In this document: positions 50,193 to 61,609 of the stretch, in pieces | Layout: the number at the start of each line of letters is the position of its first letter | How positions within the stretch are numbered: position 1 is the first letter of the stretch | NCBI GenBank assembly: GCA_947499725.1 | Contig: CANMPK010000004.1 | Coordinates: 211,550-275,549 of the forward strand | Source: an uncultured Rhodobacteraceae bacterium | Lineage (GTDB): Bacteria > Pseudomonadota > Alphaproteobacteria > Rhodobacterales > Rhodobacteraceae | Length of the DNA stretch: 64,000 nucleotides | Direction: 5' to 3' | The notes under the pieces: model-generated | What the model saw: only the letters and a program-made list of their open reading frames with translations | What the model was told of the DNA's origin: nothing | The model's database searches: none | Position numbers and translations under genes: made by a program

Positions 50193-50927
50193 ATGACACC
50201 ATTCGTGACCAGCCCGCTCACCCGCAAGCTTTCGGCCTTTGTCGCTTTGTCAAAGGCGGAATTGGATGTGCTCGAGCGCCTACACCAGCGCCGTCGCTCC
50301 TTTGTCGCTGGGCGAGATATGGTGCATCAGGGGCAGTCGGATCAGGCTGCCTATATCCTGTCCGAAGGATGGGTTTGTTCCTACAAGTTCCAGCCTGACG
50401 GGACCCGGCAGATCGTCGATTTCCAGGTGCCAGGGGATTTTCTGGGGTTGCGGAGCGTCCTTTTGCGCACGTCGGACCACAGCTTCGAACCAATCGTCGA
50501 CATCGAGGCTGCGGAAGTGCTTAAGAGCGACCTTCTGAATGCATTCGCGCAGACCCCTCGCCTCGCAACCGCCATACTCTGGGCGGCGTCGCGGGACGAG
50601 GCGATGGTCGTGGAACATCTCGTCGGAATCGGTCGGCGTGATGCGGACGCCCGCATGGCGCATTTCCTGCTGGAGCTGGGATCGCGGCTTGCGCTGGTGG
50701 GCATGGGGACTGAGGATGGGTATGATTGCCCGCTGACCCAGTATCACCTGGCAGATGCCTTGGGACTTAGTGCGATTCACGTGAACCGCGTCCTGCGGCA
50801 GCTCCGTGAACGCGGGCTGGTCACGTTTCGCGGCGGTCGCGTTTCCTTTGAAGACCATCGCGTGCTGGTCGACCTTGCAGAGTTCGATCCGGAATACCTT
50901 GACCAAAATGGTCCACTGTTGAAATGA
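50193..50927 (+). CDS. Crp/Fnr-family transcriptional regulator (HVNR recognition-helix type)
   Basis: cNMP-binding-like domain (GTRQIVDFQVPGDFLG), RMAHFLLEL, and HTH LTQYHLADALGLSAIHVNRVL. GAAGGAG RBS. Confidence 0.92.
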   Translation: MTPFVTSPLTRKLSAFVALSKAELDVLERLHQRRRSFVAGRDMVHQGQSDQAAYILSEGWVCSYKFQPDGTRQIVDFQVPGDFLGLRSVLLRTSDHSFEPIVDIEAAEVLKSDLLNAFAQTPRLATAILWAASRDEAMVVEHLVGIGRRDADARMAHFLLELGSRLALVGMGTEDGYDCPLTQYHLADALGLSAIHVNRVLRQLRERGLVTFRGGRVSFEDHRVLVDLAEFDPEYLDQNGPLLK

Positions 50928-51025
50928 CCTGCGCCGCCCCGTTGATCGACGAGGCGACGTTCTCATTTTTGCCGTGCCTTTGCGCTCGCCTTTATCCGGC
51001 AGAGGTACTCGGAATGTGGATGGGC

Positions 51026-51301
51026 TCAGTCGTCTTCGTTGTCCGAATTGAGCGAATCTAGGCGCTGAAAGACGTTTGCGAGCGTGAGCGTGCCGCATTC
51101 GGTTGGCGACAGCTCAGCTGATTTCTCAAGTTTTGTGCAGGGGCGCACTATGTCCTCCGTTTGTGGTAGTGGAAGTGGTTGGGGGTAAAGGCTTTCCGCC
51201 TGTCCGGCAGCAGCCAAGGAGGCGAAGATCACAGCCGACCCGAAGCGTAGCTTCAGTCGGGCAATCCGGGCAGTCGAGAAAATTTTCGGATTAGAATTCA
51301 T
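51026..51301 (-). CDS. Small putative exported protein, 91 aa
   Basis: Basic N-terminus plus hydrophobic stretch ending AAAGQA, two Cys, AGGA RBS before ATG 51301. Confidence 0.5.
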   Translation of the reverse strand: MNSNPKIFSTARIARLKLRFGSAVIFASLAAAGQAESLYPQPLPLPQTEDIVRPCTKLEKSAELSPTECGTLTLANVFQRLDSLNSDNEDD

Positions 51302-51458
51302 TGGGTAGTCCTTTCCTAGGCACTTCGAGAATAAGAAGCGTGTCGACATGCCGTCCTTTGGAGATCGACACGCCACCCGCTTCTCGGGTACTCGGAAAAA
51401 TGCACCACCGAATGTTCGGCGGAACGTCTCACCTAAACGGAGTCGGCGCCCCGCCGCA

Positions 51459-51472
51459 CTGACGCAGGTTAG
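51459..51472 (-). promoter_or_regulatory. Crp/Fnr-like box 1 (CTAAC-ctgc-GTCAG on the minus strand)
   Basis: 5-4-5 dyad followed after 23 nt by TAGGTG on the minus strand, upstream of the 51301 gene. Confidence 0.6.
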
Positions 51473-51510
51473 CCCCGACGCTTGCGGCAGGACGGTTGCC
51501 CATGCGCTTC

Positions 51511-51924
51511 TCATTTCACCACAGTTTGCTGGTGGGAAATCCTCAGCCATTTGTCGTCATCGACAAGGTACGTTGACGCGCAGAGCGCCTTGTAGATCGG
51601 CACGTCGGTTTTTTCAGCCGAGACGCGATAGGTGAGAATGGCAATATCATGACACCGCGTCACGCGCCGTTCGGCCATGACAACGGTGCGCCAGCCTGTA
51701 TTTTCGCGAAGATGGGGCCAGATCTGGTCGCCCTGGAGGATGCCGGGCGGATAGGGGAAGACCATAACGGCGTTGGTTGCCGTGGTCGCCTGCGCACTGT
51801 CGGCGCCGCTGGTCCAGAACTGTTCCTCTATGCCCCAGAGTTTGCCCTGTTCGTGTGGAGAAAGCGTACCGGACTTGTGCGCTGCATGGTCCGGTCTCCT
51901 CGCGGTCGCGGTTGATACGGTCAT
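51511..51924 (-). CDS. NTF2-like / DUF4440-type protein
   Basis: Size and pattern AILTYRVSA...STY...KWLRISHQQT fit the SnoaL/NTF2 fold. ATGA overlap with the upstream gene. Confidence 0.6.
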   Translation of the reverse strand: MTVSTATARRPDHAAHKSGTLSPHEQGKLWGIEEQFWTSGADSAQATTATNAVMVFPYPPGILQGDQIWPHLRENTGWRTVVMAERRVTRCHDIAILTYRVSAEKTDVPIYKALCASTYLVDDDKWLRISHQQTVVK

Positions 51925-59178: not shown

Positions 59179-59408
59179 TCCCCACAGGGCGCGGCGTTGT
59201 CCCAGTACCGTATTGGACCCGTCATTCGGCCTGTCTTGACTTCGCTCGCATCACGCCGACCGGTGTCTTATGGAGCGAAGAGGGCTTGGAACTTCGCTAC
59301 CGTCACAGGAAACGCAGTCGGCTCTATCACAAGGGCAGCTCCGTGATTCGCCTGCGTCCAAGAAACCCAATCAAGAATAGCTGAAGGCCTCTGCCACAGC
59401 CAACTCCT

Positions 59409-59594
59409 TTGCAGGAAGGCGAAGTCGTATCCGTCGGTGCCGACGCAAAAGACAATGCCGGCGTGCGTATCGCAATGGTCGCCAAAGCTGGCGACAAAAT
59501 TCTGTTCGGCAATTGGTCGGGCACGGAAATCAAGATCTGCAGTGAAGAGCTGGAGATAATGAAGGAGAGTGACATCTTTGGCATTAGGGCCTGA
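59409..59594 (+). pseudogene. groS: 5'-truncated co-chaperonin groES
   Basis: QEGEVVSVG...[14 protein letters not shown]...[10 protein letters not shown] matches the GroES C-terminal part. The PLHDRV start and mobile loop are not found in the upstream frames, and there is no RBS. Confidence 0.75.
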
Positions 59595-59637
59595 CCGACG
59601 CTGAACCCTCACCCATTTTTCATTTAGGAATACCGAC

Positions 59638-61272
59638 ATGTCTGCAAAAGACGTAAAATTCGGCACGGACTCCCGTGACCGCATGCTCAAGGGCATCAAT
59701 ACGCTCGCCAACGCCGTCAAGGTCACGCTTGGCCCCAAGGGCCGCAACGTGGTCTTCGACAAATCCTACGGAGCGCCACGCATCACCAAGGACGGTGTCA
59801 CGGTCGCCAAGGAATTCGAACTCTCGGATGCATTCGAGAACATGGGTGCACAGCTCGTCAAAGATGTTGCATCGCGCACCAATGACGAGGCTGGCGACGG
59901 CACGACCACCGCCACGGTTCTCGCCCAGGCCATCGTCAAGGAAGGTATGAAATCGGTCGCCGCTGGCATGAACCCGATGGACCTTAAACGCGGTATCGAC
60001 AAAGCGGTCACCGCCGTTGTTGCCGAGGTCAAGGCAATGTCGCGGCCAGTGGGCGATACGGCCGAGATCGTCAAGATCGGCACCATCTCCGCAAACGGTG
60101 AGGCTGCTATCGGCCAACAGATCGCGGACGCGATGGCCAATGTCGGCAACGAAGGTGTCATCACCGTCGAAGAGAACAGGGGCCTCGAGATCGAGACCGA
60201 AGTGGTCGAAGGCATGCAATTTGATCGTGGCTATCTCAGCCCGTATTTCATCACAGATATCGCCAAGATGACGGCGACCCTGGAAGATTGCGTCATCCTC
60301 CTGCACGAGAAGAAACTGACGTCTCTGGCCCCTATGGTGCCCTTGCTTGAAGCTGTCATGCAGGCGAATAAGCAGCTTTTGGTGATGGCCGAGGACATTG
60401 AAGGCGAAGCGCTCGCGACCCTTGTGGTGAATAAGCTGCGCGGTGGCCTAAAAGTGGTCGGCGTCAAAGCACCTGGTTTTGGGGATCGCTGCAAAGCGAT
60501 GTTGGAAGATCTGGCCATCCTTACCGGTGGACAGGTGATTTCCGAAGAGCTGGGCATCAAGCTTGAAAATGTCACGATGGACATGCTGGGCGATGCCAAA
60601 AAAATCACGATTACCAAAGACACAACAACCGTGATCGACGGCGCAGGCGACAAAGAATCCATCGCTTCACGGGTCACCCAAATCCGTGCACGGATCGAAG
60701 GGACCACCTCAGACTACGACAAGGAAAAACTGCAGGAGCGGCTGGCCAAACTGGCAGGCGGCGTTGCGGTGATCAAAGTTGGTGGTGCGACCGAGATCGA
60801 AGTGAAAGAGCGCAAGGATCGGGTTGATGACGCCTTGAACGCAACTCGTGCGGCGGTCCAAGAAGGCGTCGTTCCAGGCGGTGGCGTTGCGCTTGTCCAT
60901 GCGGGCAAGGTTCTGGAAGGTCTAAAAGGAGAAAACGCGGATCAGGATGCGGGTATCAAGATCATCCGCAAAGCTCTTCAGACCCCACTGCGCCAGATCG
61001 CTGAAAACGCCGGAGTTGATGGTTCAGTCGTTGCTGGAAAAGTAATTGAGCACACCAGCAAGACGTTCGGTTATGATGCGCAGCTGGACCAGTACGGCGA
61101 CATGTTGAAGGCCGGTGTCATTGATCCGACCAAGGTCGTTCGGATGGCGCTGGAATATGCCGCATCGGTTGCCGGCCTGCTGGTCACCACTGAAGCGATG
61201 GTGGCGGTTAAACCTGCCAAGCCGAACCGCCACGGAGTACCCGACATGGAGGGTATGGAAGGCATGATGTAG
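59638..61272 (+). CDS. groL: Chaperonin GroEL (divergent island copy)
   Basis: 544 aa with [20 protein letters not shown] and [17 protein letters not shown] motifs. Confidence 0.95.
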
Positions 61273-61433
61273 AAGCGAACTTTTGCGCGCGGCATTGGAA
61301 CCAATCTTTATGAGCCACGAGCAGTATTTTCCTTAAGACGGCTCGCACCAACGTCCCGACTTTTTCCAGTCGCTCTGCCCCCTGAGTAGACCATGTCGGA
61401 AGGCTCCGCTTTCTGTCATTAAATCGCTCCATG

Positions 61434-61447
61434 CTGATCTGTGTAAG
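61434..61447 (+). promoter_or_regulatory. Crp/Fnr-like box 5 (CTGAT-ctgt-GTAAG)
   Basis: Followed after 22 nt by TAGCTA (61470-61475), upstream of the 61610 gene. Confidence 0.6.
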
Positions 61448-61609
61448 CGTCGAAAACTGGAATGTAAGCTAGCTAGAAAATGCCCGCTGAAAATTCAGCA
61501 GGGCATGTGTTTTCGAGTTTTTAAGCGGCGCGCAAGTGGCGGTTCCCTAAAAGGAATTTCTTCTTTCGCGCTCCGCTCTTTCTCGAAGTGCCCAGGAAAG
61601 GACACCACA

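Follow-up and report, generated by a model that had tools for sequence, protein, structure and literature searches.

How does a cluster of largely anonymous genes on a mobile island come under common control? The question is raised by a 64,000-nt stretch of an uncultured Rhodobacteraceae bacterium (positions 211550-275549 of contig 4; hereafter the window, to which all coordinates refer unless marked as contig positions), in which the gene for an island-borne regulator of the Crp/Fnr family lies close to a series of short palindromic boxes. The source genome comprises 3.15 Mb in 14 contigs, with about 54% G+C, and its best protein matches point to the Roseobacter group of the Rhodobacteraceae. 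A preliminary description of this DNA had proposed that the regulator acts on at least five island promoters through a re-specified box. Those parts of the proposal that can be computed (island specificity, footprints, co-occurrence with the regulator, and spacing to a TA dinucleotide) held, and binding and activation, which we infer, are worded conditionally below. Our overall reading, to which we give a probability of roughly 0.7, is that the island regulator would bind the boxes and activate the box-linked units as a class II activator, so that the locus probably represents a real, local, activator-dependent regulon.

Direct inspection of the sequence placed each of the five boxes at its proposed coordinates and on its proposed strand (Table 1), and the distances to the five downstream TA-containing hexamers were likewise correct. 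The boxes had also been described as oriented. This applies to the spacer, which reads C/A-T-G-N on the strand of the downstream gene and is the sole directional part of the box, but not to the core: GTMAG and CTKAC are reverse complements of each other, which makes the core, CTNAY-N4-RTNAG, a degenerate palindrome.

The motif is strongly clustered. The strict pattern CTRAYN4GTMAG has six matches in the window against 0.40 expected, a number reached by none of 100 shuffles, and 26 matches in the whole genome, five of which lie inside 10 kb. The sixth match in the window, at 5458, sits in coding DNA and was discarded as a regulatory site. With the symmetric form, CT[AGT]A[CT]-N4-[AG]T[ACT]AG, the genome has 47 matches; 12 of these are intergenic, and half of the 12 fall within 12 kb (51459-63039). 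Whole-genome gene calls were made with a crude codon-score caller, and the labels "intergenic" and "coding" are approximate outside the window.

A more demanding question is whether these boxes stand out once the island itself is left out of the definition of the motif. A weight matrix was trained on the sites of other species only, excluding both this genome and a relative whose island is 97% identical. When this independent matrix was run across the genome, the enrichment in the island that the preliminary description had predicted was recovered: among all 14-mers, box 1 ranked 1, box 4 ranked 3, box 2 ranked 4, box 3 ranked 7 and box 5 ranked 8, and the five boxes are the five best intergenic matches genome-wide. 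Elsewhere, the high-scoring and strict-spacer matches sit inside well-scoring open reading frames. None of the intergenic look-alikes outside the island has TA at a gap of 22 nt; one imperfect site has it at a gap of 23, and one look-alike is a terminator-like palindrome. A chromosomal regulon extending beyond the island was rejected on these grounds, and the regulon looks confined to the island.

The position of the boxes relative to the putative promoters is equally regular. At FNR class II promoters, the 14-bp site ends 22 nt before the -10 element, which corresponds to centring at -41.5. The same layout is found here: TA lies 22-23 nt past the box in all six window sites (the five boxes and a candidate sixth, considered below), without a -35 hexamer. 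No -35-like hexamer is present at the box promoters, and a promoter scan returned no sigma-70 -35/-10 pair at these sites. Since this is the class II geometry of FNR and FixK, the regulator would most likely switch these units on.

Related loci provide the next line of evidence. The regulator has relatives of 80-93% identity in at least 451 species; most of these belong to the Rhodobacteraceae, and there are a few other hosts (Roseibium, Filomicrobium, Devosiaceae, and one Luminiphilus bin). Such relatives are also carried on 29 plasmids, and the cluster is present on plasmids of Phaeobacter, Paracoccus, Roseibium, and other genera; strains with the island include Phaeobacter porticola P97 and Tritonibacter mobilis F1926. 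For comparison, 86 related loci were assembled, 80 from a genome collection and six straight from related genomes. Relative to its rate in the present genome, the motif shows a 6.5-fold enrichment in the 80 loci from the collection. Across the related loci, the boxes recur at matching sites: behind the small gene next to the regulator on its downstream side, facing away from each other between the 146-aa gene and the 104-aa gene, ahead of the 159-aa gene, and downstream of groEL. A strict box was found upstream of the 146-aa gene in 57 of 59 loci (the box 2 class), upstream of the 104-aa gene in 59 of 60 (the box 3 class), and upstream of the 62-aa-type gene in 56 of 64 (the box 1 class); three further loci have a one-mismatch box. 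Counterparts of box 5 follow groEL in loci L021, L033, L036, L075, and L084.

When the sequences of each class were aligned on the box, the 14 box columns were almost invariant and the flanks had diverged. Every listed site, one-mismatch variants included, has C and G at its outer positions, never T or A. Among box 2 promoters, 95% of the 38 unique orthologous sequences have TA at gap 22 (hexamer TAnCCT), as do 97% of the 59 unique sequences of box 3 promoters; the figure for a third class is 89%, and in the fourth class 85% have a gap of 22 or 23. Across the classes, the conserved -10-like hexamers are TAnCCT, TA(C/T)AAG, and TAGGTG.

The association between box and regulator was also followed in a sample of one genome per genus, 301 genomes including this one, with an orthologue cut-off of E <= 1e-60. 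About a fifth of the other Rhodobacteraceae genera (62/300) have an orthologue of the regulator. Of the 63 genomes with the regulator (this one counted), 27 contain the exact box CTAACMTGYGTCAG, versus 3 of the 238 regulator-negative genomes, and the reversed control pattern gave eight matches in the 301 genomes. Regulator-positive genomes account for 43 of the listed matches: 42 share a contig with the regulator, at a distance of 0.3-12 kb from it, and one (in genome G155) is on another contig. Box and regulator thus travel together, with no free-standing chromosomal regulon, and their joint occurrences do not form a set of independent events.

Table 1. Features of the island discussed in the text (window coordinates)
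Feature	Position	Strand	Details
3' half of tRNA-Cys	48276-48322		47 nt; left end of the regulon-carrying island
p80, small divergent gene	49801-50043	minus	about 80 aa; beside the regulator in 78 of 86 loci (tblastn)
Imperfect box CTGAT-cgag-AGCAG	50131-50144		p80-regulator intergenic region, right after conserved -10-like TATGCT (50121-50126)
Crp/Fnr-family regulator, FixK-like	50193-50927	plus	244 aa; Pfam HTH_Crp_2 and cNMP_binding; recognition helix SAIHVNRVLR
Small secreted-protein gene	51301-51026	minus	behind box 1 and structured leader
Structured 5' leader behind box 1	51302-51425	minus	terminator-like hairpin at 51422-51405
Box 1, CTAAC-ctgc-GTCAG	51459-51472	minus	-10-like TAGGTG at 51435-51430, gap 23
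Operon of 146-aa and 137-aa proteins	52346-51511	minus	behind box 2
Box 2, CTGAC-ctgt-GTAAG	52425-52438	minus	-10-like TACACT at 52402-52397, gap 22
Box 3, CTAAC-atgt-GTAAG	52487-52500	plus	-10-like TACAAA at 52523-52528, gap 22
Operon of 104-aa and 114-aa proteins, hflK, hflC	52619-55534	plus	behind box 3
Box 4, CTAAC-ctgg-GTCAG	55663-55676	plus	-10-like TAGGTA at 55699-55704, gap 22
Genes for 159-aa, Cys-repeat, transglutaminase-like, and 177-aa proteins	55805-58966	plus	behind box 4
Box 5, CTGAT-ctgt-GTAAG	61434-61447	plus	-10-like TAGCTA at 61470-61475, gap 22
Structured 5' leader behind box 5	61480-61609	plus	same kind as, and in same alignment with, the leader behind box 1; hairpin at 61483-61502
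62-aa gene (61610-61798), EF-hand protein gene, membrane-protein gene		plus	behind box 5 and structured leader
Candidate sixth class II-like site CTAAC-ttcg-ATCAG	63026-63039	plus	TATGGT at 63062-63067, gap 22

Which protein would read these boxes? The island regulator has the domain order of the Crp/Fnr family: the Pfam models PF00027 (residues 35-120, E 7.5e-12) and PF13545 (residues 153-225, E 1.1e-14) each match it with a score better than their curated cut-off. With the NCBIfam models it stays far short of the cut-offs, scoring 65 bits versus a cut-off of 228 for Fnr, 58 versus 300 for FixK, 54 versus 300 for FnrL, and 33.5 versus 266 for CRP. Its recognition helix had been read as AIHVNR in place of E-x-x-S-R, and the alignment of its segment LSAIHVNRVLRQL to the FixK2 segment LTLETVSRALSQL bears this out; among the orthologues, down to 41% identity, the helix SA(I/V)HVNR is invariant. 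The lack of an FNR cysteine cluster proved right as well: the protein has only two cysteines, C62 and C179, both conserved, and its first 60 residues are free of them. Crp/Fnr proteins number only two in this genome, as judged by tblastn of both paralogues against it. The second is a canonical FnrL with the cysteine cluster CEGCQIRHRAVCSRC and an ETVSR helix, and TTGAT-N4-ATCAA sites number 13, five of them intergenic. This leaves the island protein as the sole family member that could read boxes of the kind described here, and it very probably binds them; given binding, activation is likely, though a shade less so than binding itself.

Among characterized proteins, the closest parallel is FixK2 of Bradyrhizobium diazoefficiens (PDB 4I2O), the best solved relative of the regulator, albeit at only 70 bits and far below the FixK equivalog cut-off mentioned above. 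Both lack the iron-sulphur cysteine cluster, and both are associated with 14-bp palindromes of 5-4-5 layout. Many natural FixK2 boxes are of the form TTGAC-CTGC-GTCAA, with the same inner bases and spacer as the island boxes, and in two cases, TTGACCTGCGTCAA and TTGATCTGCGTCAA, the agreement extends to the spacer (PMC9104804, Table 2). FixK2 differs in its LETVSR helix and its TTGA-N6-TCAA box (PMC9104804), as opposed to AIHVNR and to a box with C/G instead of T/A at positions 1 and 14 and with G, A, or T at position 3. The FixK2 regulon is global and includes a groEL copy and many hypothetical proteins (PMC9104804), whereas the present one is limited to a mobile island. FNR of Escherichia coli and Aliivibrio fischeri (PDB 5CVR) has the same domain order, a 14-bp palindromic operator, and, at class II promoters, the same distance between box and -10 element; the island regulator is unlike it in having neither the N-terminal cysteine cluster nor the E-x-x-S-R helix, and its box is not TTGAT-N4-ATCAA.

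Compared with the FNR/FixK2 box, the island box retains T2, A4, and Y5, replaces T1 by C, and no longer requires G3. Mutational work on FNR and CRP assigns to the Glu of the helix a contact with the G:C pair at position 3, and to the Ser the reading of the first T. By analogy with these contacts, the change in the box matches the change in the helix, that is, Glu to Ile/Val and Ser to Asn. Re-specified boxes are known elsewhere in the family, as in CprK (TTAAT-N4-ATTAA), the NnrR/Dnr variants, and NtcA (GTA-N8-TAC): an altered recognition helix goes with a shifted half-site, and the palindromic layout of the dimer's operator is retained. Unlike these proteins, the island regulator travels with its whole regulon on mobile DNA. 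No described Crp/Fnr member with a CTNAY-N4-RTNAG box or an HVNR helix was found in the literature searched, nor was any paper on the regulator, the box, or the cluster. More distant homologues, at about 40% identity, on plasmids of Azospirillum, Methylobacterium, and Loktanella (L110, L111, and L112), have HVNR or HINR helices and a C-terminal FD(P)xYL motif and adjoin unrelated genes (paa, pca, sensor kinases), so the subfamily is wider than this island; its members point to a broader, uncharacterized Crp/Fnr subfamily in Alphaproteobacteria. No such boxes were found beside these homologues.

In the mechanism that we propose, a dimer of the regulator would bind the 14-bp palindrome CTNAY-N4-RTNAG, preferably in the form CTAAC-CTGC-GTCAG, 22-23 bp upstream of a -10-like TAnnnn at five, and probably six, island promoters. 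The bound activator would then stand in for the -35 contact and recruit RNA polymerase, with transcription predicted to start near 51423 and 52390 on the minus strand and near 52535, 55711, 61482, and 63074. The products placed under control would be small secreted or membrane proteins, HflK/HflC, and Cys-repeat, transglutaminase-like, and EF-hand proteins, perhaps together with a peptide ATP-binding cassette (ABC) transporter. Regulator, boxes, and targets move together on plasmids and tRNA-linked islands, and the outer C/G of the box, T/A in FNR and FixK boxes, would keep the module apart from the FnrL network of the host.

Several observations weigh against this interpretation. Related islands are mobile DNA of 65-97% identity, so that common ancestry, rather than independent events, accounts for all of the co-occurrence and for part of the conservation. 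Several of the -10-like hexamers lack the usual final T (TAGGTG, TACAAA, TAGGTA, and TAGCTA). Homologues at 41-51% identity (L027 and L028) have nearly the same helix and no such boxes nearby. A terminator-like hairpin and U-run follow immediately after boxes 1 and 5, and these two boxes could be taken to lie within the 3' end of the upstream operon. Finally, class II spacing was rejected for the imperfect box at the regulator's own gene, since by direct reading it fits in neither direction.

The last point gives some footing to a different role for the same protein, in which it would bind the boxes and repress by occluding the upstream DNA contact of the polymerase, until a signal releases the repression. 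The imperfect box not only misfits activator spacing but also overlaps the likely start after TATGCT; moreover, Crp/Fnr proteins can repress, and the fixK2 gene is negatively autoregulated (PMC9104804). Occlusion does not need a box-to-TA distance fixed at 22-23 nt in all classes, which is activator geometry, and target promoters without a -35 and with a weak -10 would be poor promoters without an activator, which speaks against repression. We consider this role unlikely, and it is even harder to attribute the boxes to another reader, such as FnrL or a different host factor, leaving the island regulator with other targets or with none. Their 5-4-5 layout and inner bases are those of FNR/FixK boxes, and the spacer CTGC is common in FixK2 boxes (PMC9104804). 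Against this, the outer positions are always C/G in the listed sites; position 3 is free (G, A, or T), whereas FNR and FixK need G; FnrL keeps its ETVSR helix and the genome has its own TTGAT-N4-ATCAA sites; and the box is tied to the presence of the island regulator across hosts of many genera. A host reader is for these reasons very improbable.

Slightly less probable still is conservation for a reason other than binding, the boxes being relics of a duplicated promoter-leader module or recombination junctions between island modules. The boxes do sit at module boundaries, the hflKC insert carries its own box, and the similar spacers of the five boxes would fit common descent. Yet within each promoter class the 14 box columns and the TA are fixed while neighbouring columns are free across 38-59 unique sequences, which argues for selection on the box itself, and the half-sites vary only in ways that keep the palindrome. 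Activation by the island regulator remains the reading that we prefer.

If the regulator activates these promoters, what would it respond to? The absence of an N-terminal cysteine cluster implies that it does not sense oxygen through an iron-sulphur cluster. One candidate signal, by analogy, is redox control via the conserved C179: three residues further on is the position that the redox-sensitive C183 occupies in FixK2 (PMC9104804). A ligand in the beta-roll is a second candidate, for which the cyclic AMP-contact residues are absent by direct reading: the region of the phosphate-binding cassette, GDFLGLRSVLLRTSDHSF, has neither the Glu nor the Arg-Ser/Thr-Ala motif of CRP. The co-conserved p80 protein is a third candidate, as a partner of the regulator. 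More broadly, it is a tentative idea, rather less than an even bet, that the island holds a self-contained transferable regulon with its own operator code, in which the shifted specificity of the regulator (outer C/G, free position 3) would make it orthogonal to FnrL/FixK so that it would work unchanged in many genera, with leader RNAs on some targets adding a post-transcriptional layer, for example in response to temperature.

Two further sites extend the set. The gene for the binding protein of a peptide-type ABC transporter (63238-) is preceded, at a distance of 198 nt, by the candidate sixth class II-like site. This site is weaker than the five boxes, with a matrix rank of 51, and is shared only with the 97%-identical island of a genome of the same genus (L021). 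The imperfect box stands in the 149-bp gap between p80 and the regulator, of which cTATGCTGGACTGATCnnnAGCAGT is the best-conserved block in an alignment of 83 loci. At the corresponding position, shortly before their own gene, orthologues at about 70% identity show the perfect palindrome CTGAT-N4-ATCAG, and closer orthologues retain CTGAT-N4-AGCAG. The imperfect box is probably an operator, a candidate either for autoregulation, by which the regulator would limit its own synthesis, or for control of the divergent p80 operon. Here p80 heads a desaturase operon, and in many relatives it is part of a p80-groES-groEL operon; on plasmid pP97_c of Phaeobacter porticola, it is annotated as a 78-aa coding sequence upstream of groES-groL.

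The units behind the boxes are little characterized. Apart from a transglutaminase core, Pfam and NCBIfam scans name none of the target proteins, and the neighbours are hypothetical proteins in the Prokaryotic Genome Annotation Pipeline (PGAP) annotation. Since nearly all cluster genes are publicly "hypothetical", a defined regulator and operator would let the regulon be switched on, revealing the inducing condition and the functions of its genes. The locus would also be a natural case in which the helix and the box of a Crp/Fnr protein change together, which is informative about how cross-talk between an imported regulon and its host is avoided. For synthetic circuits in Alphaproteobacteria, the regulator and its operator are a candidate orthogonal pair.

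In this genome and in a related genome of the same genus, the gene behind box 1 encodes a 91-aa protein with a signal-peptide-like start, in place of the usual 62-aa-type gene, and box, promoter, and leader are retained despite the replacement. The 159-aa gene has a box of its own only where hflK-hflC is inserted in front of it (9 of 37 loci); elsewhere the operon continues. Together, hflK-hflC and the box and promoter of the 159-aa gene (53382-55804) behave as one insertable module. The 104-aa (52619-52933) and 177-aa (58433-58966) proteins are distantly related paralogues, with 27% identity across 82 aligned residues (pairwise E 4e-5) and a common N-terminal motif, PF..F.E.LPAG.YE. Between the units of boxes 4 and 5, groES (59409-59594) lacks its 5' end, only the final 61 codons being left before an intact groEL (59638-61272). 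Most related islands have a full groES-groEL pair, which follows p80 on the opposite flank of the regulator.

Behind boxes 1 and 5, the putative transcripts begin with structured leaders of the same kind. Across 24 diverse leaders, a consensus computed with RNAalifold describes an element of about 130 nt that opens with a hairpin and also comprises a U-run, a long-range stem, and, covering the ribosome-binding site, another, small hairpin; 16 of the 27 predicted pairs show compensatory changes. An Rfam scan of the island returned no known family for the leaders and a single match at chance level. The conserved RNA structure starts a few bases past the predicted transcription start, a position that lends slight support to that start. 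The structure suggests a second, RNA-level control, and the leader is a candidate cis-regulatory RNA, possibly a thermometer or an attenuator.

The ends of the island complete the picture. The 47 nt of the tRNA-Cys fragment at its left end recur identically at contig 4 position 282185, 22.4 kb to the right of the window copy, and again inside the intact tRNA-Cys gene (contig 4, 330554-330627, minus strand). Three copies of the 3' half, the last within the intact gene, imply that two elements have integrated in tandem. The left-hand element, of 22.4 kb, holds the regulon and is without an integrase; the right-hand one, of about 48 kb, carries type IV secretion and integrase-like genes according to the crude gene calls. 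A gene for 289 aa comes after the second repeat (contig 4, 282457-283326), and the first open reading frame past the left repeat (48459-48600) is a truncated copy of it: the two share a near-identical start, MSW(V/R)(V/I)ANECAERRFGS, after which the window copy diverges. The truncated frame is a scar of the backbone of the older element.

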